Shown: positions 1,931 through 29,256, counted from the stretch's first letter. The stretch is 64,000 bases of DNA from Candidatus Kaiserbacteria bacterium (GCA_026713605.1 JAPOOC010000010.1:10556-74555), one strand, 5' to 3'. Numbers and translations: made by a program. The notes: generated by a model not told the origin, from the letters alone.

Positions 1931-3573
1931 ACTTCAATCGGTACTCCATGATATGTGTGGAAAACATGGAAAGATCAATGGACAAGCGGTATTTCTGTCT
2001 GTTGTGTGGCTGTTATTCTTTTCGGCTGTCAAATGGTACACTTTCTTTATCTTGTATGATTACTCTTATATCCCGTGTGCAGAGGTGGTTGGATGGTATT
2101 ACCATGTATCGTGTCGTGACGGGTGGACTTTGTTTTTTGGTGGTGGTGAGTTTTTTGTTGGGGTCTGTAGGATTGGTGTCGTACAGTTTTTCTGATCAGG
2201 TTACTTCGTTAGTTGTTGCGCTTGGTGTTGCTGTAGTGAGTAATGTGGTGTTTGCGCGACTGTTTCGGGTTTCTGCTCAGCATGAGTCGGCAGTTATTAC
2301 GGCGTTGATTATTTTCTTTCTTGTTATTCCCGCGACTTCGTTTTCCGGACAGTGGGTTGTTGCTGTCGTTGCTTTTGCTGCTGTCGCTTCAAAGTTCCTT
2401 TTTGTGTGGAGGCAGCAGCACATTGTTAATCCTGCTGCGTTTGGCGTGCTTGTACTCAGCGCACCCGGTTTGGTTGAAGCAGCGTGGTGGATTGGGAGCT
2501 TTTGGTTGTTTGTACCACTTGTTATCGTCGGATTTCTCGTTGTGATGAAAATACGGCGATGGCCACTTGTGTTGTGGTGCATCGGCACTGCGTTTATTGT
2601 GTATGTGTTTGAGGCGTGGCGACTCGATCTTTCTATCTCTTCTTCTGTACCCACCTTTTTCTTGTCGTGGCCTATATTGTTCCTTGCGTTTTTTATGCTC
2701 ACCGAACCGTTCACTACCCCACCAACAAAAAAAATGCAGATGTATTACGGCGCGCTGGTCGGCGGTCTTTCAAGTGCTGTTTTTTTCGCACCATATATTG
2801 CGATGTCTCCTGAACTTGCGCTGATCATTGGTAATCTTACCTTCTTCTCCTTTTCTTTGCGTAGAAAATTGCACCTCACTCTTATTAGAGCAAAGGAGGT
2901 TGCTAAAAATACCCGAGAGTTTGTTTTCACAAAACCGGAAGATGTGCGGTTTCGCGCTGGGCAGTATCTCGAATGGATGTTGCCGCACAGGAAGCCAGAC
3001 AACCGAGGGGTGCGACGATATTTTACTATTGCTTCCGCGCCGCACGAGGATGTGTTGCGGATTGCGGTTCGATTTTCTGAGGGTGGGAGCACCTATAAGC
3101 AGGCATTGCGGCAACTTGCACCTGGTGATTGTATTATTGCCAGTCAACGAGCTGGAGATTTTTTGCTACCGGATGACCCGACAAAAAAACTTGGATTTGT
3201 TGCCGGCGGGATTGGTGTTACCCCGTTCTTGAGTCACTTCGGAGACATCGCACGGCAGGGTGTGCCGCGGGATATTGCTCTGTTCTACTGTAATAACACA
3301 AGTGAGGAGATTGCGTATAGGGACATGCTTGATGCGCTTACTGATTCCGGTCAGTGTACTGTGGTGCATATCTTGGCGGAGGAGAAAGTGGTGGGGTGTG
3401 AGTATGGCTTGTTGACTGAAGATGGTATTAAAAAGTACACGCCTGATTATCAGGATCGGCTTTGGTATCTCTCTGGTCCTCCGGGGATGGTGTATGCCTA
3501 CACCACGCTATTGCAAGGCGTGGGTGTGCCAAACCGCAATATTGTTCGTGACTTCTTTCCCGGATTAGCGTGA
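1903..3573 (+). CDS. polytopic membrane protein fused to a C-terminal FNR-like FAD/NAD(P)H-binding oxidoreductase domain
   Basis: About 8 predicted TM helices in the first ~330 aa. C-terminal RRYFTIAS (RxYS FAD motif) and GGIGVTPF (GGxGxxP NAD(P) motif). The start is ambiguous (ATGs at 1903, 1966 and 2056); the 5' end is duplicated upstream at 1383. Confidence 0.7.
   Translation: MYYNILILPHFNRYSMICVENMERSMDKRYFCLLCGCYSFRLSNGTLSLSCMITLISRVQRWLDGITMYRVVTGGLCFLVVVSFLLGSVGLVSYSFSDQVTSLVVALGVAVVSNVVFARLFRVSAQHESAVITALIIFFLVIPATSFSGQWVVAVVAFAAVASKFLFVWRQQHIVNPAAFGVLVLSAPGLVEAAWWIGSFWLFVPLVIVGFLVVMKIRRWPLVLWCIGTAFIVYVFEAWRLDLSISSSVPTFFLSWPILFLAFFMLTEPFTTPPTKKMQMYYGALVGGLSSAVFFAPYIAMSPELALIIGNLTFFSFSLRRKLHLTLIRAKEVAKNTREFVFTKPEDVRFRAGQYLEWMLPHRKPDNRGVRRYFTIASAPHEDVLRIAVRFSEGGSTYKQALRQLAPGDCIIASQRAGDFLLPDDPTKKLGFVAGGIGVTPFLSHFGDIARQGVPRDIALFYCNNTSEEIAYRDMLDALTDSGQCTVVHILAEEKVVGCEYGLLTEDGIKKYTPDYQDRLWYLSGPPGMVYAYTTLLQGVGVPNRNIVRDFFPGLA
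2035..2131. repeat. 97-bp direct repeat, copy 2
   Basis: Identical to 1383..1479; it lies inside the 5' end of the membrane oxidoreductase gene. Confidence 0.9.
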
Positions 3574-3582
3574 GTTTTTACC

Positions 3583-4098
3583 TTGCTCTCGTGGTATAGT
3601 GATATTTATATGCCTCTCATTCCCATTGTTCTTATTATTGGTGTCGTTGTGATTGCGGGTTTTGTTTTTTTTATGCTCCCGAGCAGGCAGTCGCCGGAGC
3701 CACCAGCACCATCCGCGGCAACGACGGTTACTGATGTTGCTCTCCCCCTTACCCCATCATTGGAGCGTCGCATAGAGGATGTTGTGTTGTTGCAAACGAA
3801 CACCTATCGCAACGGCACTTATACCACTCATGCATCGTACTACACACCGAAGCGGCAAAAGCATGTTATTTCTGTTACCCTTTCGTTGCAGGACGATGTG
3901 ATTACTGCCGCTGATGTGCAGTATGACAGTGCTGCGGCAAAAACACCGAGCCACACACGGTTTGACGGTGCGTACGAGTCGCTCGTTCTTGGTGTGGAGA
4001 TGGATGACCTTGATCTTTCGCGGGTCGGCGGCGCATCTCTTACCACGACCGCCTTTAATGAAACACTGGCGGACATTGCCTCAGATGCATCTTTATAA
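3583..4098 (+). CDS. membrane-anchored protein with a putative FMN-binding (FMN_bind-like) domain; possible flavinylation substrate
   Basis: N-terminal TM helix, then a Pro/Ala-rich linker. C-terminal DLSRVGGASLTTT resembles the Dxx(S/T)GA(T/S) flavin-attachment motif of NqrC/RnfG-type FMN_bind domains. It sits between a flavoprotein gene and apbE. Confidence 0.45.
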   Translation: MLSWYSDIYMPLIPIVLIIGVVVIAGFVFFMLPSRQSPEPPAPSAATTVTDVALPLTPSLERRIEDVVLLQTNTYRNGTYTTHASYYTPKRQKHVISVTLSLQDDVITAADVQYDSAAAKTPSHTRFDGAYESLVLGVEMDDLDLSRVGGASLTTTAFNETLADIASDASL

Positions 4099-4985
4099 TG
4101 GTACAGATTAAGGAAATCCCCGCACTCGGTACCCACTGGTGGTTTGACTTGTTTGCCGTGCCAGCGTCACGAGAAAAAGAGATTGCTGATCGGCTTGTCA
4201 GTCGCCTCAACACCTTTGAGCAACAGTATTCGCGCTTTTTAGATACTTCTTGTGTGGGTGTGTTGAACAAAACTGGCATACTTAAAAACCCGTCTGATGA
4301 ATGCATCTCTCTGCTGCAGTTCGGGCAAAAACTGTACCGAGATACCGGCGGGATGTTTAACTTTCTCTCCGCTCATACGCAAGTTGCGCGTGGCTACGGC
4401 TCTCCTGATAGTGTGCGTGCTGGTGACAGTATGGCGCCCGCGAATCCCACACTTGATCTCGTTATTGATAAGCAGTGCGTTACGCTCCGTCGTGGTGCCG
4501 TTGACCTTGGTGGCTTTGGGAAGGGGTGGCTTATTGATGACTTGGCTGCTCTGTTGCGAACTTCTTTTGGCGTGCAGTATTTTCTTATAAACGGGGGTGG
4601 TGATATCTATGCGAGTACCCTCCCCGACAACTCGCCTGTTGTTATTTTTGTTGAGCATCCAACTGATCAAAAGCGTATTATCGCAAAAGTGCCGCTTGCC
4701 AATCAAGGGTTTGCTGGCTCTGGCACTTACAAGCGTCGGTGGCGACACGCTGATACAATGCACCACCACATCATAGCTGATCATACCGCTGCTATGACGG
4801 CTCACATCATCGCTGACACCGCGCTTACTGCTGATGTCTTCGCGACCCTCGCATGTGCGGTTGCTCCCGCAAGAGTGCCGAAGCTACTCTACGATAACAA
4901 TCTTGAACACCTCCTTATTCAGCGCGATCGTGTTATCTGTTCTGAATATTTTTCGCGGTTCCTCTTTTCATCAGTGGATAAATAA
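4098..4985 (+). CDS. apbE: FAD:protein FMN transferase (ApbE family)
   Basis: 295 aa; ApbE-like blocks DTGGMFN, VDLGGFGKGWLIDD and INGGGDIYA. Confidence 0.8.
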   Translation: MVQIKEIPALGTHWWFDLFAVPASREKEIADRLVSRLNTFEQQYSRFLDTSCVGVLNKTGILKNPSDECISLLQFGQKLYRDTGGMFNFLSAHTQVARGYGSPDSVRAGDSMAPANPTLDLVIDKQCVTLRRGAVDLGGFGKGWLIDDLAALLRTSFGVQYFLINGGGDIYASTLPDNSPVVIFVEHPTDQKRIIAKVPLANQGFAGSGTYKRRWRHADTMHHHIIADHTAAMTAHIIADTALTADVFATLACAVAPARVPKLLYDNNLEHLLIQRDRVICSEYFSRFLFSSVDK

Positions 4986-5048
4986 CGGCGAATCGGCTGT
5001 CGCGTATATGCGACAGCCGATTGTGTTGTGAGATGTCTGTTGGCAAAT

Positions 5049-5777
5049 TTACTGTGTGCTTTCAGTGTCGGATTCGGCTGTGTCGGTTTCTACCATATCC
5101 ATTTCAGTGGTTGTATCTGTTCGTGTCTTTTTGTCTGCACCCATTCTGTGGTTGCCCATGCGCTTGTAATCTTTACCCTGATGTCCCCCGCATGCACCGT
5201 GCCCGTGCCAATTAAAGCCACGGTCATCCGTTGAAGCAATTTTAGTGGCGCGTGTGTTGAACTCTTCTTGTGTCATGTCGTCGTAACGGCTCTTGTATTC
5301 GTCACCGAGCAGTGTTTTCAATTCCTGCACCTTTCCAGTGAATGCCGTAAAATCTTTATCCTCTGCCGCCTGTTTGATTGCCTGTTTGATGGCGATCATC
5401 TGCGCTTTCTTTGTGAAAGCACTTTCTGAGAGCTGGTGCATACTTCCTTCGGTCAGAGTTTTGTATGCCTCGTAATCGTTTGCGGAGAATGTGTCGCTGA
5501 TTTGTTTTTTCTTCGCAATTTTTTTCGCCTGTTCTGCAAATTCATCTTGTGTCAAAACAGTTTCCTCGTGTTTTTGATCCATCGCGGCAGTGTATGCATT
5601 GTAGTCCGCGCTTTCAAATGCTTTGTGTATCGCACTCTTGGTCTCTTCAGATACGCCACCGTGTCCGTGATGCCCTCTTTCAGCGAATACGCTTACTGCA
5701 TAGATGCTCACAAGCACTGCAATCAATAGGGCAGTTAGCATTACCATGCTTTTTGTGTTGTATATTTTTTTCATATC
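5049..5777 (-). CDS. secreted His-rich helical-repeat protein, hypothetical
   Basis: Signal peptide MKKIYNTKSMVMLTALLIAVLVSIYAVSVFA. His clusters ERGHHGHGG and NWHGHGACGGHQG. Repeated QEEF/QDEFAEQAKKIA helical segments. The start is moved from the track ORF (5885) to the signal-peptide Met. Confidence 0.5.
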   Translation of the reverse strand, partial: DMKKIYNTKSMVMLTALLIAVLVSIYAVSVFAERGHHGHGGVSEETKSAIHKAFESADYNAYTAAMDQKHEETVLTQDEFAEQAKKIAKKKQISDTFSANDYEAYKTLTEGSMHQLSESAFTKKAQMIAIKQAIKQAAEDKDFTAFTGKVQELKTLLGDEYKSRYDDMTQEEFNTRATKIASTDDRGFNWHGHGACGGHQGKDYKRMGNHRMGADKKTRTDTTTEMDMVETDTAESDTESTQ

Positions 5778-5878
5778 GGTTTTTTTATTTTTTAGCAATA
5801 CATACGATGTGTTTTCGTATGTATTTGTAGTGTAGCATGCGATATGTTTTCTTTGTTGCGTTTTAGGTAGGTATTCTT

Positions 5879-7801
5879 CTACCATTCAAATGCATTCTTT
5901 AGGTGATGGAGCATGCTTCGCGTGTCGGTGAATGCATCTTCTGATTTGAGTATGACGGTTATGATGTGCCCCTTTTGTGAAGGCGTTTTAGCGACGATGG
6001 TGAGATTGTTTTTTGCCCTCGGCGTTGTGCCGGTCTTGCCACCTAATACCTGTAACACGATTTCCTTGTCGGTGAGTAAATCGTTGGTTGTTGCTATCGG
6101 TATTGTTCGCTTCGTGGTTATTTCTGTTATGGTGTGATTGGTTTTTTGGAGGATGGCAAAAACATCTTTCTTGTTTTCAAAAATGTGTTTTAACAGTAGC
6201 GTGATGTCTGATGCGGTTGTGTAGTTTATGTTTTCACTTCCCTCTTTTGGATCAAGTCCGGTTGTGTTGAAGAAATGTGTGTTGAACATTTTTAATTGGT
6301 GGGCGCGGTCGTTCATTTTTTGTATGAATTTTTCTCTGCCGACTGTTTCTGCGATTGCAATTGCTATTTCGTTGTTTGATTCAATGAGGATTGCATGGAG
6401 TGCGTCATTGAGCAATATAGATTCTCCTGTGATAAACCTTCCTGACACACCCTTGCCGTTTAGTGCGCTTTGATTGATGCTAATACTCCTGTCCGACCGC
6501 AGTGTTTCAGACGCAACCAGTGCGGTCATCAATTTTGTTATACTTGCCATCGGTAGTTTTTTTTCTTTATTCTTTTGGAATAGCGTTTGATCTCCTCCGT
6601 TTGTGCTTGTGATTACTGCTACAGCACTGTTTGCAGATAGGATGGGTTCTTCACTACTAGTACTCTTCGGATTAGGATACCGTGTTGTTCTTTGTTGTGC
6701 CATTGGTGTTACTAGCTGCGCCTGCCAAACATCATTTCGCCAACGCCATTCAGCATCCATACCACCAAAAATCCACACCCTGTCTTTGAATACCGCTGAA
6801 AAGAAATCCTCCCTACCCTTCCACTGTGGATCAGTTACTGTTTTTTTCCACCTTATCCCATCTTCTGAATACCATACATTATTCGGTCCTTTGTTTTTTT
6901 TGTCGTTAAACCTTCCGATGAGCCACATCTTTCCTTTATACACCTCCATTGCGTGACCTTGTCGTTGCCCCCATGGCGGGCTGTTGGTTACTAGTCGCCA
7001 GTGCAATCCGTTTTCTGTTACCCACACATCGTTAAAAATCCCTCCGGTTAAATTCATACCGCCTGTCAGGTACATTTTTCCTTTGAATACTGCCGTTGCA
7101 TGATCCCACCGTGATTCCCATGGCATATTCTCTGCCTCCACCCAAGTTATCCCGTCTTCGGAATACCAAACATCGTTTTTTGTCTCTCGATTGTCATAAT
7201 TCACACCACCGATGAGCCAAATTTTATCTTGGAAAATTTCTACCATCTGCCCTTCCCGCGCAGGCCATTCTGCCTGTTTGGTTGCCTGTGTCCAGTGTAT
7301 CCCATCAGTGGATGACCAAATATCATTTGTGTAACCGGTCACCGGACTCCACCCTCCGAACATCCACAACTTGTCTTTGAAAAGTACCACCGACATAGAC
7401 CGTCTCGGTGGCCACTCTGCCGCTGCTACTGCCTGATGCCACCCCATACCATCTTCGGAATACCATATGTCGTTGAAGTGTGGTGCTTTCCAGTAGTCAA
7501 TGGTGTCGTCCCCTCTGATAGTGCTATTGCCGTTGATTCCACCCATCATCCAGAGTTTGTTTTGGAATAGAAATGCTTCACCAGAATCTCGCGTTTCCCA
7601 TGGCGCCGCTGCAGTCACCTCTGTCCAGCGCATGTCATGCCGTCTTACTATCGGTGTCTTTTTTGTGGTGTCGGTTGCTGCTGTATTTTTTTTCTCACCA
7701 TCTTTTTCGCCTACTCCCGCCAATGGGTCAAACATGGTATACATACCAAAAATAAAGAGGGCGAACATACTTGCGAGAATGACAAATTCTAACCACTTCA
7801 T
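5879..7801 (-). CDS. membrane-anchored Kelch-like beta-propeller fused to a D-alanyl-D-alanine carboxypeptidase (peptidase S11) domain
   Basis: N-terminal TM helix. About six repeats of W..(S/T)EDG..W....(L/I)W(M/L)(F/I)GG type. C-terminal SxxK (ASITK) and SNN (ESNNE) motifs of PBP5/DacA-type DD-carboxypeptidases. Confidence 0.7.
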   Translation of the reverse strand: MKWLEFVILASMFALFIFGMYTMFDPLAGVGEKDGEKKNTAATDTTKKTPIVRRHDMRWTEVTAAAPWETRDSGEAFLFQNKLWMMGGINGNSTIRGDDTIDYWKAPHFNDIWYSEDGMGWHQAVAAAEWPPRRSMSVVLFKDKLWMFGGWSPVTGYTNDIWSSTDGIHWTQATKQAEWPAREGQMVEIFQDKIWLIGGVNYDNRETKNDVWYSEDGITWVEAENMPWESRWDHATAVFKGKMYLTGGMNLTGGIFNDVWVTENGLHWRLVTNSPPWGQRQGHAMEVYKGKMWLIGRFNDKKNKGPNNVWYSEDGIRWKKTVTDPQWKGREDFFSAVFKDRVWIFGGMDAEWRWRNDVWQAQLVTPMAQQRTTRYPNPKSTSSEEPILSANSAVAVITSTNGGDQTLFQKNKEKKLPMASITKLMTALVASETLRSDRSISINQSALNGKGVSGRFITGESILLNDALHAILIESNNEIAIAIAETVGREKFIQKMNDRAHQLKMFNTHFFNTTGLDPKEGSENINYTTASDITLLLKHIFENKKDVFAILQKTNHTITEITTKRTIPIATTNDLLTDKEIVLQVLGGKTGTTPRAKNNLTIVAKTPSQKGHIITVILKSEDAFTDTRSMLHHLKNAFEW

Positions 7802-22051: not shown

Positions 22052-23251
22052 TTGACAACTAAAGTAAAATTAGTACACTATACTTATATGTATGATAACA
22101 GCACACATAGAGGAAGCGAGGAGCGTCAACAGGGGTGTGAGATATTTTTTCTACAGGTAGGGGAAAATGATTCAGAGAGTAGTCAGAGTGGGGATGCTAT
22201 TGTTCTGACAATGGGCAATCGTTTCAGTAATAATAGGGATGATTATAAAATCATTGTGATTGATGGTGCGTTTACTCATGATGCGCAAACCGTTAAGAAG
22301 CACTTAAATCTTTTGGATGCAAAAAATGAAAATGACAAGTTACAGATTGATTTAATGGTTTCTACACATTCTGATCAGGATCACATAAGTGGTTTGATTA
22401 AGTTGGTGGAAGACGATGATGTTGAGATTAAAAAATTGTGGGTTCATGACTGTAATAAAATTACAGGCAATATTACATGCAGCGTTGATCAGGTAAAAAA
22501 TTTAATTTGGATTGCAGGAAAGAGGGGCATACCTATGGAAGAGCCATTTGCTGGTCTGTCATACAATCCTGATGATATAGATGCTTGTATAGAGGTATTA
22601 GGACCAACAGGAGAATACTATGAGGAATTAATGTGTTCTGTAGATAAGGTATATGTAAAAGGTAAGAGAAAGAACGCTTTTAGTGTTTTAGGAAGAGCTT
22701 GTGACGCATTGCGCAATAGTGTTGGCTCAATGCTTGAGCATGTATTTGATACAGAATTACTGAAAGACCCTGATGAAAATGCAACATCTAATAGTAATAA
22801 TTCTTCAGCAATTTTATTATTAAAATTTTTCAAAAATGATCAAGTGAGTGATCTTGCATTATTCACTGCTGATGCCGGTGTTCCAGCATTGGAGAAGGTT
22901 TTTCCGGCGCTTGAGGAGCATGGTTGGTCTGAATACAGTGTTAAAAGGTTTTTACAAATTCCACACCACGGGAGCAGAAGGAATGTTGGTCCAACACTTT
23001 TAGATGAGTTACTCGGCGAAAAGGAATTTAATTGTAGAAGAGGCTCCTGCTTTGTTTCTGCGCACGAGAAGGATGAGAGCCATCCGAAAGTGCAGGTACT
23101 CAATGCGTTTACAAGAAGAGGTTATAGAGATATTGAAGATATATATCCTGCTAAACGACATCATATGGGTGATACCCCATCAATTAATGGATGGGAGACT
23201 GCTGAGAAGATTGATTTACTGTTAGGAGAGGAGGAGGAAGAACACGATTAA
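22052..23251 (+). CDS. standalone ComEC-C-like metallo-beta-lactamase-fold hydrolase, first gene of the AT-rich island
   Basis: GDAIVLTMGN...YKIIVIDGAF; STHSDQDHISG (TH.D.DHI.G, as in the ComEC MBL domain at 41388..42263); IPHHGSRRN (HHGS motif). Confidence 0.55.
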   Translation: MTTKVKLVHYTYMYDNSTHRGSEERQQGCEIFFLQVGENDSESSQSGDAIVLTMGNRFSNNRDDYKIIVIDGAFTHDAQTVKKHLNLLDAKNENDKLQIDLMVSTHSDQDHISGLIKLVEDDDVEIKKLWVHDCNKITGNITCSVDQVKNLIWIAGKRGIPMEEPFAGLSYNPDDIDACIEVLGPTGEYYEELMCSVDKVYVKGKRKNAFSVLGRACDALRNSVGSMLEHVFDTELLKDPDENATSNSNNSSAILLLKFFKNDQVSDLALFTADAGVPALEKVFPALEEHGWSEYSVKRFLQIPHHGSRRNVGPTLLDELLGEKEFNCRRGSCFVSAHEKDESHPKVQVLNAFTRRGYRDIEDIYPAKRHHMGDTPSINGWETAEKIDLLLGEEEEEHD

Positions 23252-23253
23252 TT

Positions 23254-23754
23254 ATGAAAAGATTAATACAAATAATGACAACTTATAATTTATTAAATTA
23301 TCTATTGCCGGGCATCTTGTTTGTCATTTTTGCAAATCATTTTACCTCGTATTCCTTTTTACAAGAGAATTTGATAATAGGGGGTTTTTTGTACTATTTT
23401 ATAGGTATGGTAATTAGTCGAATAGGGTCGTTATTTATTGAGCCATTCTTAAAAAAAATTCGTTTTTTAAATTTTGCTAATTACAAAGATTTTATTTATG
23501 CTGGCAATAAGGATGAAAAAATAGGAGTTCTTTCTGAACAAAATAATCAATATAGAACCATTGTGGCATTTCTAGTATCAATTGGTTTACTGAAAGTGTG
23601 GGAATTATTTTCTGATTATTTGAACTTAAGCCAATTTGCGGAAGCGGTGATTATTTATGTGGTTCTTTTGATAATATTTTTAGTTTCGTATAGGAAACAA
23701 ACAAATTATATAAGGTCAAGGGTTGAGGCAAACAAAAAAGAGGGCGGGTCATAA
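23254..23754 (+). CDS. small 4-TM membrane protein, hypothetical (island gene)
   Basis: 166 aa with four hydrophobic helices; starts 3 nt after the MBL gene stop; AT-rich. Confidence 0.5.
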   Translation: MKRLIQIMTTYNLLNYLLPGILFVIFANHFTSYSFLQENLIIGGFLYYFIGMVISRIGSLFIEPFLKKIRFLNFANYKDFIYAGNKDEKIGVLSEQNNQYRTIVAFLVSIGLLKVWELFSDYLNLSQFAEAVIIYVVLLIIFLVSYRKQTNYIRSRVEANKKEGGS

Positions 23755-23886
23755 AATAAACATTACAGCCCACCTTGCTAAATTAAGAAAATCCACATAT
23801 TTTGATATAATTCAATATTTTTACCTTATACTATTAGTGTATGTGGTGTGCTATGTGCCGTTTTCTTTCTTCAGGTTTCTTTACTT

Positions 23887-25779
23887 GCTATGGTTGAGAA
23901 AAGTTACAAGATTGGCGAAGTGGCAGAGATGTTGGGGGTGCATGAGGACACCTTGCGAAATTGGGACGCGCATGGGTTGGTGGTGGCAGACAGAGTAGGG
24001 ACGAGGAAAGATAGGAGGTATACAGTGGAACACATAAAGCAGATAAAGGAGAAAGGGCTTGTGTCTGATCTTGCGAGGCGGCAGCCGAGCGGTCGGGATT
24101 ATTCGGATTATTCAAAGGAACAGTTGATTAAGGAGTTGCAAATATTGAAAGAACAGAGAAAGTACGGACTTGTGTGGGAAGATAAGCCGGAAGAGGTTGT
24201 TGAGATGTGTAAGACACAGGCACCCATCTTAAAATCAGTTCCAAAAATGAATGTTGCTGGAAGAAAAGGTGAGCAACGAAATATTATGATAGAGGGAGAT
24301 AACTACCATGCTTTGCAAGTTTTAAACTATACGCACAAAGGAAAGATTGATGTGATATATATTGATCCACCGTATAACACGGGAGCGAAAGATTGGAAAT
24401 ATAACAATGATTATGTTGAGAAAGAAGATGCCTTTCGGCACAGTAAGTGGATTTCAATGCTGTACAAAAGAATGTTATTGGCAAAGTCTTTATTAAAAAG
24501 TGATGGCGTAATGATAGTTACGATTGACGACCACGAATTATTTAGTCTTCTTGGGATTATTGAAGATCTTGATGCTACAACATTGGGTAGAGTTACCGTG
24601 TCAATTAAGCCAGAAGGCAGGCAACAAAGTAGATATGTGATGGAGTCCCATGAATATATTATATTTATGTCTTGGGGTGTACCTAAAATTAGAGGTCTAA
24701 ATATAAATTTCGGCTCAGATTTTACTGAGGAAGATGAAATTTCTAAATTTAAGTGGGAAGGGTTTATGCGTAGGGATGCTGGTCGTGAGGATAGAAGTTC
24801 AAATACTTGGTATCCAATTTATGTAGATCAGCAAGGCAATGTTAGTCTTAAGGAAAAACCAAACACGATTAAAGTGTTGCCTATAAATACAAAAGGCATT
24901 GAACGAGTCTGGCTTTGGTCAGAAGAAAGAGCACAAAAAGATATAAGTGAATTAAAAGCAGTGATCAGAAATAATCGAGCTACTGTTTACTACAAAAGGA
25001 GAGAGCAAGAGCGAGTTAAACCAACCTCAATATGGTTTGGTAGTAAATATAATGCAAATGCATACGGCACAAGACTCTTATCAAGAATCTTGCCGGAGAA
25101 CAATTTCGATTACCCAAAAAGCCTTTATTCTGTGCTGGATGCAATAGATTTATTTTTACCAAAAGATGGGTTGGTATTGGATTTCTTCGCTGGATCAGGA
25201 ACAGCAGGACACGCAGTGATGGAATTAAACAAGGAAGATAGCGGAAGTAGGCGATTTATCCTCTGCACAAATAACGAAAACAACAATGGTAACGGACATG
25301 GTGGGATTGCTGAGAGCGTGTGTCAGCCGAGGATTAAAAAGGTGATGAAGGGATATAAGAAAAATGGGAATGGAGAGAGGGTTGAGGGGCTTGGCGGCAG
25401 TTTGGAATACTTTAAAACAGAGTTTATTGATGTGGAGAATGTGAGTGATGTTCCAGACAAGAAAAGGTTGCGATTTACCCATGAAGCCGGACATGTGGTC
25501 GCTTTGAAAGAAAACGCGTTTACTGAGTTGGAGAAAAATAATTGGTATCAGATATTTACTGATGGATTAGATAAATATGTGGGTCTTTATTTTAGAGAAA
25601 ACATTGAAAAATTAGAGGATTTGGAACAAAAGATTTTAAACAGGGGAGAGGTAAAATTATATATATTTTCACATGGCGGCAGTGATGACTGGAAAAATGA
25701 CTATACAGAGCATGAAAATGTGATAGTTGAAGATATACCAGAGCCGATATTAAAGGTGTATAAAATTTTAAATAGTTAG
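23887..25779 (+). CDS. MerR-type HTH fused to an N6-adenine/N4-cytosine DNA methyltransferase (beta class; Type III Mod-like)
   Basis: YKIGEVAEMLGVHEDTLRNWDAHGLV MerR HTH; IYIDPPYNTG (motif IV) upstream of LDFFAGSGTAGHAV (motif I), the order typical of Type III Mod/beta-class MTases. Confidence 0.8.
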   Translation, partial: AMVEKSYKIGEVAEMLGVHEDTLRNWDAHGLVVADRVGTRKDRRYTVEHIKQIKEKGLVSDLARRQPSGRDYSDYSKEQLIKELQILKEQRKYGLVWEDKPEEVVEMCKTQAPILKSVPKMNVAGRKGEQRNIMIEGDNYHALQVLNYTHKGKIDVIYIDPPYNTGAKDWKYNNDYVEKEDAFRHSKWISMLYKRMLLAKSLLKSDGVMIVTIDDHELFSLLGIIEDLDATTLGRVTVSIKPEGRQQSRYVMESHEYIIFMSWGVPKIRGLNINFGSDFTEEDEISKFKWEGFMRRDAGREDRSSNTWYPIYVDQQGNVSLKEKPNTIKVLPINTKGIERVWLWSEERAQKDISELKAVIRNNRATVYYKRREQERVKPTSIWFGSKYNANAYGTRLLSRILPENNFDYPKSLYSVLDAIDLFLPKDGLVLDFFAGSGTAGHAVMELNKEDSGSRRFILCTNNENNNGNGHGGIAESVCQPRIKKVMKGYKKNGNGERVEGLGGSLEYFKTEFIDVENVSDVPDKKRLRFTHEAGHVVALKENAFTELEKNNWYQIFTDGLDKYVGLYFRENIEKLEDLEQKILNRGEVKLYIFSHGGSDDWKNDYTEHENVIVEDIPEPILKVYKILNS

Positions 25780-25780
25780 T

Positions 25781-26869
25781 ATGAAAAAAATAACATTAAA
25801 ACCATTTCAGATTAATATAATCAAAAGATTGGAAAATTTTTCTTTTCGGAAGTTTGTTGATCTTGATAATTTTTTCAATGTAAAAAATATCGTTTTATTA
25901 TTTGTATTTATCTGGCTTATTGTTGCTTTTTTGTTTATGCATAAAATCGAGATGGAATTATTATCACCTTTGATCAGGATTCTTAGTATTATTGGTTGGG
26001 GAACCATCGGATACTTTGTTATTTGTCATACTGCTGGCTATGGCCTGTATAAGAAAATAATTCCTTGGGGAGAACGAGGAGCGGTAATAAAAATTATTGG
26101 CGTGTGTGTTGGATTATCCATCGGTTGGGTTTTTACATTTTTTGTAAGATGGATGCATGCGCTGCTCTTGAGTGAGGTGCTCGTCATTAGTATTGCTACG
26201 GTATTTGCGATGTTATTTTCTTACCTCGTATTTAGATTTTTCAGATACAGTAATCAAAATATCAAGGGAGGTGTTGCTTACATAGATGGCAATAATTTGC
26301 ATAAGGGGAGTAGGCAATTGGGTTGGGTGTTGGATTATCAAAGATTCAGGCAGTGGTTGAAGGATAAGTATGATATAGAACGGGCAGTAATTTTTATTGG
26401 GTATTTGAAAAAAAATGAGAAATTGTATTCGGATTTGAGAAGTCAAGGTTACGAGCTTTGCTTTAAAGAAGTTTCTTATGGCAGAAGAGGAGAAATCAAG
26501 GGAAATGTAGATTCAGATTTGGTGCAGAAAGTAATGGAAGATTACTCGGAGGAAAAGTTAGGAGAAAATAGTGTTGTTATAGTTTCTGGTGATGGTGATT
26601 ATGCACCGAATATACGATTTTTAAAAAAGAAAGGATTATTTAGAGCGTTGCTTGCTCCATGTAATGAAAGTCAAATGAATAATGGTAAAAGATCTGGAGT
26701 TTCTGTGTTGCTAAAAAAATTAAATATACGAATTGATTACATTGGTAACCATAAAAATGTATTAGAGAAAAAGAAAAGGCGCCCAGCGAAGACGATACAT
26801 CGCAAGGCCCCAATTCATCGTGATAATAAAATTGTATCTAATAATGAGAAAAATGTCAATATTTCATAA
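25781..26869 (+). CDS. membrane-anchored NYN-domain (LabA/PIN-like) predicted ribonuclease
   Basis: About 4 TM helices in the N-terminal 170 aa, then AYIDGNNL...GNVDSDL...VIVSGDGDY NYN motifs. The first 11 aa (MKKITLKPFQIN) are shared with the next gene. Confidence 0.65.
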   Translation: MKKITLKPFQINIIKRLENFSFRKFVDLDNFFNVKNIVLLFVFIWLIVAFLFMHKIEMELLSPLIRILSIIGWGTIGYFVICHTAGYGLYKKIIPWGERGAVIKIIGVCVGLSIGWVFTFFVRWMHALLLSEVLVISIATVFAMLFSYLVFRFFRYSNQNIKGGVAYIDGNNLHKGSRQLGWVLDYQRFRQWLKDKYDIERAVIFIGYLKKNEKLYSDLRSQGYELCFKEVSYGRRGEIKGNVDSDLVQKVMEDYSEEKLGENSVVIVSGDGDYAPNIRFLKKKGLFRALLAPCNESQMNNGKRSGVSVLLKKLNIRIDYIGNHKNVLEKKKRRPAKTIHRKAPIHRDNKIVSNNEKNVNIS

Positions 26870-26880
26870 AGGAGAATAAT

Positions 26881-29112
26881 ATGAAAAAAATAACACTAAA
26901 ACCATTTCAAGTTAATGCGATTGAAGGCCTGAAGAAGGAGGTGTTGCATCGATGGAGGAGAGATACACGGCAGGATATAAAGTTTCAGTCGCCGACAGGA
27001 TCGGGTAAGACGGTGATGATGGCTCAATTTGTGCGTGACTTGGTGAATGCGCCGGAATTATCAAATGCAGATTTTGCCTTTTTATGGGTGAGTATTGGCG
27101 GATCAAGTGATGGGGATCTGGCATATCAGAGCAGGAATAAGTTTGATGAGTACTATGGTGGCGCGTCTGAAGTTGCTGTTACCGGACTGGACAGCTTGAG
27201 TAGAGAGAAAAAAATGGAGCAAAACGAAATACTGTTTTTTAACTGGTCAAAGATTAAAACGAGAAATAAGGATGGCAGGAAACTGAGAAGGGAAAACGAA
27301 CAGGAGATAACGTGGGACGGCATGATACAGAGAACGCACGCAGAAGAGCGAGATATTATCCTCATCATTGACGAGGCGCACAACAGCAGCTCAACACTTC
27401 TTGCTGAGGAAGAGATAAGGTTGATCAATCCAAAGATGGTGATACACATCACCGCAACGCACCGGGATCAAAGTAATATAGATGTGCATGTCACTCCTCA
27501 GGAAGTAGTACAAGCTGGGCTTATAAAAGAGTTAATCAAATCACAAACACAGCAGGATTTTAAGGATAAGCGAGTGAAAGATTTAGACAAACATGTTCTC
27601 AAACTATCTCTCAAAAAGAGAAAAGAGATTGCATCTTTGTATAAAAAAGAAAAAGTGGATGTAAATCCGCTACTTATGATTCAGTTGCCAAATGATGATC
27701 GGGCAAATCAGGAAGAAGAAACAAAAAAAGAATCTGTGCTGCGATGGCTGAAAGAAGAAGGTGTTGATGAAAACACTGTTGCGATATGGCTTGATAAAGA
27801 GAAAACACGATTAGAGAACATAACGATGCATAATAACGGTATCGATATTCTGCTATTCAAGCAGGCACCGGCTACTGGCTGGGATTGTCCAAGGGCACAG
27901 GTATTGTTGATGTATCGTGAAACAAAGGATCCCGTCTTTCAAGTGCAGGTGTTGGGGAGGATTTTGCGCATGCCGGAAGGAAAGCATTACACAAAATCAA
28001 AATTAAACAGTTCGTACCTCTACACCACCTACACAAAAAATGAGATTATTGACAATTACGGTAATTACCAAGGAGAAAATCAATTAGCAATCTTTCGTGC
28101 ATCTATTAAAAAAGCTATTGAGCAAATTAAACTCAAAACATTTGTTTCTCAAAGAACCAGTTACAACGACCTTGGAAAAACATTTCAGTTCACCTTTATC
28201 AAAACTGCCAACAAAGCATTTGATAAAAAGAAATCCTTTCAGTCCTGCTTTACCTTCGGCGAAGAGGTTGAGTTAGATTTGATAGTTGATCAGGATATAC
28301 GAGATTACGATGGCTTTATACAAGCAATTAAAGAGGCGGACAGTTTGGGGCAAAAAATGTCTCGCAATGATATAGAGAAGTTGTATAAGAAATTGTGTAT
28401 TGAGATTTTACATAAACAGGAAGAAGAAACAAAATTTAAAAACATCGCCAGGTCATACGGAAAATTAAAATCTGCTATTAATGTGTGGTTTGAAAAATAT
28501 GTTGGTATTAGAGATAAAAATGAATACTACCCTTGTGTTGTGAATGACCTTAACAGAGGGGCAAACAGCATCCTGCTCCCAGTGATAAATAAGGCATTGG
28601 AACAATATGTTTCTGTAAGAAGTAAGGAGGAGGAGGAGCGAGACAAAAAAAAGGTTGATACCAAGGAAATTCTAATACCCCTAAGTGATTTCTCTTATAC
28701 AAGCAACTATGAAGAAATATCAAGTACCAAATGCGCCATGTCGCCGTGTTATGTAAACAAGAATAATGAAAACGAGAGAAAGTTCATAGAATATCTTGAG
28801 AATAATGCATCTGTTGAGTGGTGGTATAAAAATGGGGAAAACGGATCAGAACATTTCTCTATAAGAAGGGATAGTGGTAATTTATTTTTTCCCGACTGGT
28901 TTATTAAAACAAAAAAAGACATTTGGGTGGTAGACACGAAAGGAGGGTTCACTGCTGAAGGAGAAAGTGCTGTTTCTCGGGCAAAAGCATTAGACATATG
29001 GTTGAAAGAAAACAAAAACTTTAAGGGAGGTCTTGTAAAGGAAGTTTCTGGTCTTTGGAAGATTGCAAAAGATACAAAGTTGGAAAAGTGGGTTGATTGG
29101 AATTTTGAATAA
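26881..29112 (+). CDS. Type III restriction enzyme Res-like DEAH-box helicase with C-terminal PD-(D/E)xK-type nuclease region
   Basis: LKPFQ Q-motif, SPTGSGKT Walker A, IIDEAHN DEAH box; C-terminal FFPDWFIK...VVDTKGG nuclease-like motif. Confidence 0.75.
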   Translation: MKKITLKPFQVNAIEGLKKEVLHRWRRDTRQDIKFQSPTGSGKTVMMAQFVRDLVNAPELSNADFAFLWVSIGGSSDGDLAYQSRNKFDEYYGGASEVAVTGLDSLSREKKMEQNEILFFNWSKIKTRNKDGRKLRRENEQEITWDGMIQRTHAEERDIILIIDEAHNSSSTLLAEEEIRLINPKMVIHITATHRDQSNIDVHVTPQEVVQAGLIKELIKSQTQQDFKDKRVKDLDKHVLKLSLKKRKEIASLYKKEKVDVNPLLMIQLPNDDRANQEEETKKESVLRWLKEEGVDENTVAIWLDKEKTRLENITMHNNGIDILLFKQAPATGWDCPRAQVLLMYRETKDPVFQVQVLGRILRMPEGKHYTKSKLNSSYLYTTYTKNEIIDNYGNYQGENQLAIFRASIKKAIEQIKLKTFVSQRTSYNDLGKTFQFTFIKTANKAFDKKKSFQSCFTFGEEVELDLIVDQDIRDYDGFIQAIKEADSLGQKMSRNDIEKLYKKLCIEILHKQEEETKFKNIARSYGKLKSAINVWFEKYVGIRDKNEYYPCVVNDLNRGANSILLPVINKALEQYVSVRSKEEEERDKKKVDTKEILIPLSDFSYTSNYEEISSTKCAMSPCYVNKNNENERKFIEYLENNASVEWWYKNGENGSEHFSIRRDSGNLFFPDWFIKTKKDIWVVDTKGGFTAEGESAVSRAKALDIWLKENKNFKGGLVKEVSGLWKIAKDTKLEKWVDWNFE

Positions 29113-29223
29113 AAGTTATTTTTCCCATGTGATAATCATGTTCTTGTTCCCTGTCTGGATACCCCTCTTTTTTATAAAATTTATAAAACTGTTAAGTGAG
29201 TAGATGGCGGGAAACATTTTAAA

Positions 29224-29256
29224 AGGGGCGGTCAATGACCGCCCCTTTATTGTTTT
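29224..29256 (+). terminator. rho-independent terminator closing the island operon
   Basis: 9-bp stem GGGGCGGTC/GACCGCCCC, loop AAT, followed by TTTATTGTTTTT. Confidence 0.65.

Follow-up and report, generated by a model that had tools for sequence, protein, structure and literature searches.

Embedded genes, which are nested in multi-gene defense systems, were surveyed by Payne et al. in Hma, BREX, DISARM, and Type I restriction–modification (RM) systems (10.1101/2024.01.29.577857); Type III systems were not included in that survey (10.1101/2024.01.29.577857). The classic embedded case is PrrC, an anticodon nuclease (ACNase) whose gene lies within Type I hsd loci; the candidates of the same study included HEC-09, a NYN protein that gave no defense in their tests (10.1101/2024.01.29.577857). 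For Type III systems, the only extra gene found in a literature search encodes a helicase-like ATPase and lies 5′ of mod (PMC8259958).

Here, we analyzed a 64,000-nucleotide stretch of DNA (hereafter, the window) from Candidatus Kaiserbacteria that carries a Type III RM operon. As read from its sequence, this Type III operon has an embedded, predicted RNase gene that has captured the start codon of its host and is flanked by what is probably a preserved insertion scar. The gene, which encodes a NYN-domain protein, is nested on the same strand within one known defense system, which is the position that marks embedded genes. The operon resembles canonical Type III RM systems (EcoP1I/EcoP15I) in that an N6_N4 methyltransferase (Mod) and a ResIII-type Res are encoded on one strand in the order mod-then-res. 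It differs from them in that mod and res are not adjacent, the NYN open reading frame (ORF) lying in a 1101-nt gap, and in that its clade has a MerR-type helix-turn-helix (HTH) on Mod and a short Res (~743 aa). The window Res is 100% identical to a protein (P0004) that NCBI assigns to Candidatus Kaiserbacteria, a member of the Candidate Phyla Radiation (CPR). The features on which the argument depends are the following, with positions counted from the first nucleotide of the window.

23848..25779, + strand: Type III mod gene with an N-terminal MerR-type HTH (N6_N4_Mtase, PF01555, E 6e-26; MerR_1, E 4e-10; PADLOC MTase_III, E 1e-69, aa 93-599).
25777..25816, + strand: left repeat copy, consisting of the mod stop TAG, a T, and codons 1-12 of the putative former res start (MKKITLKPFQIN), with the same stop-T-ATG geometry as the uninterrupted junction of the relatives L144/L145.
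25781..26869, + strand: apparently chimeric ORF of 362 aa, with 16 res-derived or junction residues, a native transmembrane (TM)-NYN protein, and a frameshifted tail (ORF list; BLASTP to the homolog P0124).
25817..25828, + strand: junction codons 13-16 (IIKR), belonging either to the leader of the inserted gene or to res sequence that has diverged further.
26870..26874, + strand: AGGAG Shine-Dalgarno (SD) sequence for res, in the 3′ flank of the putative insert and 6 nt before the ATG (read from the sequence).
26877..26916, + strand: right repeat copy, consisting of TAAT (mod stop position duplicated) and res codons 1-12.
26881..29112, + strand: intact Type III res, encoding a superfamily 2 helicase (ResIII, PF04851, E 7e-17, aa 4-194; GSGKT at aa 40-44; PADLOC REase_III, E 1e-15).

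The first-pass annotation of the window had reported that the NYN gene and res share near-identical 5′ ends of ~30 nt, 1.1 kb apart. This was confirmed using a repeat finder, which showed the repeat to be slightly longer: the segments 25777-25816 and 26877-26916, 1100 nt apart and identical at 36 of 40 nt, form the top direct repeat of the surrounding 7 kb, in which the runner-up repeat family comprises 28 nt at 71%. Even with up to three mismatches allowed, the 64-kb window contains two copies and no more of the 29-nt core (ATGAAAAAAATAACAYTAAAACCATTTCA), the expectation from 100 dinucleotide-preserving shuffles being 0.00. A local alignment of the res 5′ end with the whole mod–res gap scored 57, the maximum among 200 shuffles being 25. 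Chance and a common 'MKKI' protein start were ruled out as the origin of the repeat because the 29-mer is unique and 0 copies were expected.

The two copies sit on the ATG codons of neighboring same-strand ORFs, 25781-26869 (362 aa) and 26881-29112 (743 aa), and both proteins open with MKKITLKPFQ(I/V)N, residues 1-12 of the 362-aa ORF (MKKITLKPFQIN) being the Res start. The assignment of these ORFs as NYN and Res proteins, also made in the first-pass annotation, holds by profile (PF01936, E 3e-13; PF04851, E 7e-17). Each copy runs from 4 nt before the ATG (TAGT on the left, TAAT on the right) through codon 12, including the mod stop codon position, and strong identity stops there: the first 12 codons agree at 33 of 36 positions, whereas the next 15 nt agree at 7 of 15. 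The four differences between the copies are all transitions, three of which leave the encoded proteins unchanged, and the longest perfect blocks within the repeat are 16 and 13 nt. Codons 13-17 match the window res at 7 of 15 bases and the res of a relative, L148 (AIERL), at 11 of 15. Since they match the L148 allele better, the breakpoint would fall between nt 36 and 51 of the ORF (after codon 12 and up to codon 17), and the source of the left copy may have been a different res allele.

Seven contigs encode an identical Res. The four that were compared, from four samples (two from JGI, one from Logan, and one from ENA), are 100% identical to the window in DNA; three span the whole of mod–NYN–res, and one (L004) begins inside the NYN gene. 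Since contigs from four samples and three sources match the window at 100%, an assembly artifact is unlikely.

As a family comparison set, we used 102 loci encoding relatives of both Mod and Res. In 87 of these, mod and res overlap or are no more than 30 nt apart, a 4-nt overlap being found in 45. A close clade, defined by Res identity of at least 63%, comprises ten distinct loci, the window and nine relatives, which were reached through exact-protein look-ups; Res scans of genomes and metagenomes gave mostly relatives of ~30% identity. At L144/L145 (Res 69-70% identical), the junction reads ...TGA T ATG-res, the geometry of the window's TAG T ATG at the NYN ORF. Because TAG T ATG mirrors L144/L145 and mod and res abut in the family, the left copy appears to be the original mod/res junction.

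The N-terminal extension of the NYN ORF was examined by comparison with its homologs. When residues 1-165 were compared exhaustively with 1.84 billion cluster representatives using phmmer, a single relative was returned, P0124, a 309-aa, full-length TM+NYN protein that is 36% identical to the window ORF (BLASTP, E 1e-61). Met-1 of P0124 aligns to Leu-17 of the window ORF, a TTG codon at 25829. The P0124 gene is stand-alone, with a 198-nt upstream spacer, and lies beside an AIPR (abortive-infection) gene, far from any RM system. Since the P0124 family has its own N-terminus at residue 17, the first 16 residues of the window ORF are probably an addition. The other NYN relatives, P0001-P0003, are 200 aa long and carry neither the membrane domain nor the res start. 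A profile search with the three detectable members of the membrane-domain family found no further members. A phage origin was rejected, as no relative was found in viral contigs or GenBank phages. A word-index protein search missed the window's own NYN protein, though it is called on L002, L003, and L005, a sensitivity quirk and not an absence. The gene for P0001, the closest NYN-domain relative (55% identity; L001 8001-9998), lies 170 nt upstream of an rve-family integrase gene, a hint that a mobile element may carry the NYN genes of this clade.

Together, these results suggest that the repeat is probably the scar of a gene insertion into an ancestral, abutting mod–res junction of a Type III RM operon. 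In this event, ~1.06 kb of DNA (about 25817-26876) would have landed just after res codon 12, possibly up to codon 17, carrying a stand-alone gene for a membrane-anchored NYN RNase with its own start, a 3′ hairpin (described below), and its 3′ flank. The 40 nt from the mod stop through res codon 12 would have ended up on both sides of the insert, a duplication because of which res would have stayed intact. Because the junction is in frame, by luck or by selection, the RNase would now be translated from the old res start with 16 extra N-terminal residues, and res would be translated from the duplicated start via the AGGAG in the 3′ flank of the insert. The best-fitting route to the duplication would be a template switch or illegitimate recombination re-entering upstream of the exit point; an alternative would be recombination between two different res alleles. 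An insertion of the NYN gene with duplication of the res 5′ end had been proposed in the first-pass annotation, and this proposal is supported by the junction geometry, the duplicated stop position, and the N-terminus of P0124.

That annotation had also suggested checking homologous islands for the inserted gene. L144/L145 proved to be empty, and the other clade relatives carry different cargo, as listed here for the slot between mod and res.

Window: 1101-nt gap, TM-NYN gene.
L138: 972-nt gap, two ORFs.
L139: 939-nt gap, gene for a 313-aa protein.
L141: 939-nt gap, gene for a 310-aa protein of the L139 family.
L148: 962-nt gap, gene for a 318-aa protein of the L139 family.
L140: 732-nt gap, gene for a 239-aa protein.
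L143: 720-nt gap, gene for a 238-aa protein of the L140 family.
L142: 763-nt gap, one ORF.
L146: 4319-nt gap, about seven ORFs (2685-6997), among them multi-TM, RhuM, weak PDC-S32-like, and DUF3800 ORFs.
L144/L145: 1-nt gap, no ORF.

The slot of the clade holds at least five mutually unrelated gene sets. A single fast-evolving family of middle proteins was ruled out (BLASTP/hhalign E ~0.14 or worse, with thin profiles), and Pfam and PADLOC gave no convincing match for the middle proteins of the relatives. The distribution of the cargo conflicts with the Res tree: it differs between L138 and L140, whose Res proteins are 92% identical, and is common to L139, L141, and L148, whose Res proteins are 63-82% identical. 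Several clade loci occupy one chromosomal position, between dCTP deaminase/uracil-DNA glycosylase and MerT-like/FtsX genes. By these comparisons, several relatives have the operon at one and the same place on the chromosome, and what is exchanged is its middle part. With lower confidence, we infer that the mod–res junction of this Kaiserbacteria/Paceibacteria clade is a preferred slot for repeated cargo exchange. A search of the gaps of the eight other loci for res 5′ or mod 3′ scars gave nothing significant; the window alone has a res 5′ duplicate. A faint resemblance in L139 (score 22-24) was not robust, the N-terminus being a conserved protein feature shared with L148.

Some of these loci show further peculiarities. 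In L138 (1851-3798), two ORFs of 259 aa and 385 aa stand in place of one continuous mod, which is apparently frameshifted or a pseudogene, with res intact, and in L146, an IS110-family transposase gene lies just downstream of res. The only distant relative with a sizeable mod–res gap is L009 (Pacearchaeota, ~33% Res identity), in which a 282-aa ORF (5153-6001) lies between mod and res, overlapping both neighbors by 4 nt. Judging from L009, embedding also occurs occasionally outside the close clade.

The 362-aa ORF has two predicted domains in addition to its N-terminal extension. Its N-terminal half consists of four hydrophobic helices within residues 17-160; these had gone unnoticed in the first-pass annotation, as had the frameshifted 3′ end, the variable mod–res slot, and the second res-start fusion in a related genome (see below).

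25880..26250, + strand: membrane domain with four hydrophobic helices at ~aa 34-52, 64-82, 102-120, and 133-151 (Kyte–Doolittle 19-residue windows, 1.8-2.6).
26270..26770, + strand: NYN (PIN-like) nuclease domain (Pfam PF01936, E 3e-13, aa 167-286, 50.8 bits against a cutoff of 24.2).

In the structural model generated using AlphaFold2 (AF2), long helices span residues 34-87, 96-130, and 132-157, and the NYN domain spans residues ~164-330 with a predicted local distance difference test (pLDDT) score of 83-92, the N-terminal res peptide having a pLDDT of ~56. The membrane domain is homologous to aa 1-147 of P0124 and to a 31-aa stretch encoded at another locus, L007 (55% identity, E 5e-9). The top Foldseek matches for the NYN model were MARF1 NYN domains and 2qip, the solved structure of VPA0982, deposited without an assigned function; 2qip, 5yaa, and 6fdl matched with a probability of 1.00 and template modeling (TM) scores of 0.67-0.69. 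Asp-169, Asn-172, Asp-244, Asp-271, and Asp-273 (D169, N172, D244, D271, D273) are invariant in the NYN family alignment. By its profile, its predicted fold, and its acidic active-site residues, the 362-aa ORF is thus a NYN protein and a predicted RNase. PADLOC matched the ORF to its generic NYN model only (E 3e-6). Following the positive-inside rule, the Lys/Arg-rich N-terminus and the four helices place the NYN domain on the side where it should face the cytoplasm. We tentatively suggest that TM-NYN may be a membrane-tethered RNase that is co-expressed with the RM enzyme and works as an accessory 'embedded' defense effector, a possibility that we rate somewhat below even.

Two features mark the 3′ end of the NYN cassette.

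26765..26778, + strand: frameshift site in A-runs (GAGAAAAAGAAAAG), A5-G-A4, one base short relative to the family frame.
26774..26815, + strand: conserved stem-loop over the last codons and stop of the NYN genes (RNAfold, covariation).

The frame from 26731 reads into EKEKAPSEDDTSQGPNSS followed by a stop, ending at the TGA at 26821-26823, and the annotated ORF continues to 26869. EKEKAPSEDDTSQGPNSS matches the conserved C-terminal end of the relatives, which close with KAPDGDKTP (P0003), TPDGDKTP (P0001), ALDGDETP (P0002), and KAPDEDNTS (P0124), each directly before the stop (family pattern KAP-D/S-G/E-D-x-T-S/P). Within the frameshift site, the shift maps to A-runs spanning 26768-26777. The annotated tail of ~30 residues is unrelated to the family, and aa 335-358 are predicted to be disordered (AF2, pLDDT ~40). 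The frameshift spares the catalytic core and is identical in every compared contig spanning it, hence it is not a one-off sequencing error.

The stem-loop has counterparts at L147 8899-8940 and L001 8578-8619, and RNAfold gave the same fold for all three. In the three-sequence alignment, 95% of the cells of its 14 pairs are paired, with five compensatory pairs and no one-sided change; covariation of this degree was equaled by 1 of 500 shuffles, and slid controls pair at 24-50%. In one of the compensatory changes, the stop TAA of the relatives is CAA in the window. The DNA of the hairpin region is 84% identical between genes whose proteins share 36% identity, and DNA homology connects the last 50-80 nt of the insert with the P0124 (L147) and P0001 (L001) genes, at their 3′ ends and in the flanks that follow them. 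Since the stem is conserved through compensatory changes, the nucleic acid itself appears to be under at least part of the constraint, and the C-terminal peptide common to the family may be largely a translation of the hairpin. In the window, the stem-loop lies ~65 nt upstream of the res ATG, and its candidate roles are a terminator or processing site ahead of res, a cassette-end recombination site, or a target of the RNase itself.

Searches of Rfam with the stem-loop and the junctions gave no match, and the hairpin motif was not found in viral contigs. A covariance model of the hairpin matched, in the DNA searched, only the three NYN gene ends from which it was built (the window included). 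The hairpin was ruled out as a general cassette boundary, there being no copies at the other middle genes and the weak matches (22 and 16 bits) resembling ordinary terminators.

A second fusion to a res start was found in L007 (OZ244939.1), a Paceibacterota chromosome with a syntenic locus whose flanks are 68-70% identical to those of the window. The island there (4774-6678) is decayed and retains only a 600-nt res fragment, 86% identical to the window, and no mod gene. The N-terminal part of a resolvase is joined to what is left of the C-terminus of an L139-type middle protein; 178 nt then follow that are collinear with the L139 'middle gene 3′ end + res nt 1-30' (148 nt + 30 nt). Collinearity stops at res nt 30, where an in-frame switch leads into a 274-aa ORF beginning MKQIIPKTFQ. 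The membrane domain of this ORF is related to that of the window (55% identity over 31 aa, E 5e-9; 83% over 46 nt), and the ORF also has a PemK/MazF domain (Pfam, E 9e-8). Among the 148 loci, the only non-Res ORFs with a res-like start are those of the window and L007, and the two junctions lie 6-21 nt apart in a 2.2-kb gene, both in frame.

Several points weigh against insertion followed by use of the captured gene. A middle gene is present in every one of the nearest Res relatives (77-83% identity), so that the lineage must have passed through an empty mod–res state or received the junction by recombination. The copies differ at 4 of 40 positions, which points to later divergence or to two alleles of origin, and the molecular mechanism of the 40-nt flanking duplication is one that we infer. 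With its C-terminal frameshift, the NYN gene may be decaying instead of functional, and it has no close orthologs for testing purifying selection. What speaks for a defense role is solely its context, namely the low-GC island, the PDC-M48 pair next door, and the abortive-infection (Abi) gene beside the homolog. Finally, the L007 fusion, with its junction at res nt 30, suggests that the site or the peptide may not be accidental.

The first of the competing explanations is that the 362-aa ORF is a non-functional chimera heading for loss and that the repeat has no present role. Its foreign N-terminal extension and its C-terminal tail, frameshifted with respect to the family, would agree with this, and L007 shows that the island can decay. 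We nevertheless consider such decay unlikely: a 362-codon open frame persists in DNA of 35% GC, the conserved acidic residues of the NYN domain are all intact in a confident domain model, and the frameshift touches only the last ~13 residues, where it overlaps a hairpin conserved by compensatory changes.

The repeat could also be the product of targeted capture, in which cassettes encoding a membrane domain and an RNase would integrate preferentially at the first 10-17 codons of res, in a site-specific or homology-guided manner, the res start serving in effect as their attachment site. L007 provides a second in-frame res-start fusion with a related membrane domain and a junction only 6-21 nt from that of the window, these two loci are the sole holders of non-Res ORFs with a res-like start among the 148, and both cassettes end in GC-rich hairpins. 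However, there are only two cases, and one of them, L007, came to light by way of its res fragment, an ascertainment bias. The junctions are unequal (nt 30 in L007, nt 36-51 in the window), and selection for in-frame expressed insertions could give the same pattern. In addition, the window island has no recombinase gene, the resolvase fragment upstream in L007 is fused to the remnant of another gene, the third family member (P0124) lies away from any res gene, and searching with the hairpin model revealed no copy at any other middle gene. We regard targeted capture as quite unlikely.

Alternatively, the N-terminal peptide of Res could be kept as a functional tag that docks the RNase onto Mod in place of Res, or that shares its control, much as PrrC is kept latent by its Type I enzyme. 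Control of embedded nucleases by the host RM enzyme is a known concept (PrrC; 10.1101/2024.01.29.577857). The conservation of the 12 shared codons (33 of 36 positions, against 7 of 15 for the next 15 nt) and the three protein-silent differences out of four would fit this, as would the peptide kept by the RNase fusion of L007. Against a tag, P0124 and P0001-3 lack the peptide, its 10-12 residues come from the helicase Q-motif region with no known independent fold (AF2 pLDDT ~56), and the invariant LKPFQ has drifted to PKTFQ in L007, making this explanation very unlikely. Taken together, targeted capture and a functional tag retain a small share of the probability, mainly for the in-frame fusions of L007 and the window. 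It is unlikely that modular cassettes, made of a rare four-helix membrane domain, an interchangeable RNase domain (NYN or PemK/MazF), and a GC-rich hairpin, specifically capture the first 10-17 codons of Type III res genes, or that the Res N-terminal peptide plugs the effector into Mod/Res. The simpler account is still that of an accident combined with selection for insertions that are in frame and expressed, because the junctions of the window and L007 differ and L007 was found via its res fragment.

Hardly credible is a recombination switch, raised in the first-pass annotation as a phase-variation-like gain or loss of NYN, in which the repeat would mediate frequent, precise excision of the NYN gene and leave the population phase-variable for the RNase: exchange within the repeat would indeed restore an L144-like mod-stop-T-ATG-res with an intact res, but the perfect blocks are only 16 and 13 nt long and 1.1 kb apart, efficient RecA-dependent exchange usually needing ~20-30 bp of identity, the loss would be irreversible, the four of seven contigs compared, from four samples, all keep the insert with identical DNA and include no deletion variant, the Res 90% cluster is a single sequence with no V11I recombinant on record, and no long simple repeats were seen, the longest A-runs in the region being 7 nt (in both repeat copies) and 5 nt.

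The operon lies in a low-GC island at 22.0-29.2 kb (~35% GC, against ~46% in the flanks) and is bounded by two pattern matches.

23783..23811, + strand: sigma-70-like promoter match before mod (TTAAGA-17-TATAAT with TG; consensus scan only).
29222..29248, + strand: strong terminator-like hairpin after res (12 pairs and a T-run; pattern scan).

Promoter-like sites are fewer than in shuffles, so the match before mod is weak. The pattern scan found no + strand terminator match between mod and res, the sole one inside the operon lying within res (27654-27671). Since no such match separates the genes, mod, NYN, and res appear to form a single transcription unit, as far as pattern scans indicate. 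For the NYN ORF, the absence of an SD sequence and a start 1 nt past the mod stop suggest translational coupling to mod, and the AGGAG before res has no counterpart before the left repeat copy. The first-pass annotation had also raised the possibility of shared translation-initiation control of NYN and res; the first 36 coding bases are indeed common to both, but the upstream signals differ (no SD sequence in one case, AGGAG in the other).

The 3′ end and stop of mod are kept in the relatives. The longest mod ORF opens at the GTG at 23848, and the starts of the relatives (M(A/G)KK(I/T)EKYYKIGEV) align at the ATG at 23890 (MVEKSYKIGEV...), which is probably the true start, the first 14 codons of the longest ORF being probably untranslated. 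The MerR-type HTH of the clade's Mod is apparently lacking in most distant relatives, whose alignments begin at ~residue 70-97. Near the Res C-terminus (~aa 690-710), a PD...DxK-like motif, ...FFPDWF...VVDTKGG..., was read by eye. Two ORFs directly before mod (22052-23754) match the PADLOC candidate defense pair PDC-M48, one as the metallo-beta-lactamase-like PDC-M48B (E 1e-45) and the other as the small membrane protein PDC-M48A (E 2e-60); the pair also precedes mod in L142.

Embedded defense genes in RM/BREX-type operons are a recently recognized source of immune genes whose route of entry is rarely visible. At the locus described here, the proposed insertion appears to have been kept base by base, with a duplicated stop/start junction, an in-frame capture of the start, and a new ribosome-binding site for the displaced res. 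In the Type III operon of these reduced-genome CPR bacteria, a single slot seems to have its unrelated cargo swapped faster than Res diverges, which would make the mod–res slot a cheap place to mine new effectors. Two testable objects result: a family of membrane-tethered RNases with exchangeable nuclease heads, and a covarying gene-end hairpin. If the Res peptide did act as a functional tag, the RNase would be a PrrC-like backup nuclease, connected with a Type III enzyme of CPR bacteria.

Compared with the embedded genes of Payne et al., the window shares an extra same-strand gene between RM subunit genes, a predicted RNase as cargo, and cargo that varies between orthologous host systems; it differs in its Type III host, in a cargo that is in frame with the host start codon, in the 40-nt duplication, and in the four-helix membrane domain. 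PrrC, which combines an NTPase with an ACNase in a Type I hsd locus, resembles the NYN-domain protein of this Type III locus in concept only, and PADLOC models of PrrC and HEC gave no match for the window cargo. A further difference from canonical Type III RM systems is that, in the window and in eight of its nine distinct clade relatives, mod and res are separated by one to several unrelated genes. The cargo shares the Pfam NYN domain, the fold (TM score 0.67-0.69), and the conserved Asp set with the NYN/LabA-like PIN nucleases (MARF1), but it has a rare N-terminal membrane domain with three detectable members and its gene ends in a covarying hairpin. As for a possible integron-like gene cassette, a covarying 3′ hairpin is present, no integrase lies in the island, no R′/R″ core sites were recognized, and the other middle genes lack the hairpin. 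Finally, as in polymorphic or modular toxins, one membrane module is joined to alternative RNase domains, NYN in the window and PemK/MazF in L007, whereas here no antitoxin partner was identified and the TM+NYN protein of the window matched only the generic PADLOC NYN model.

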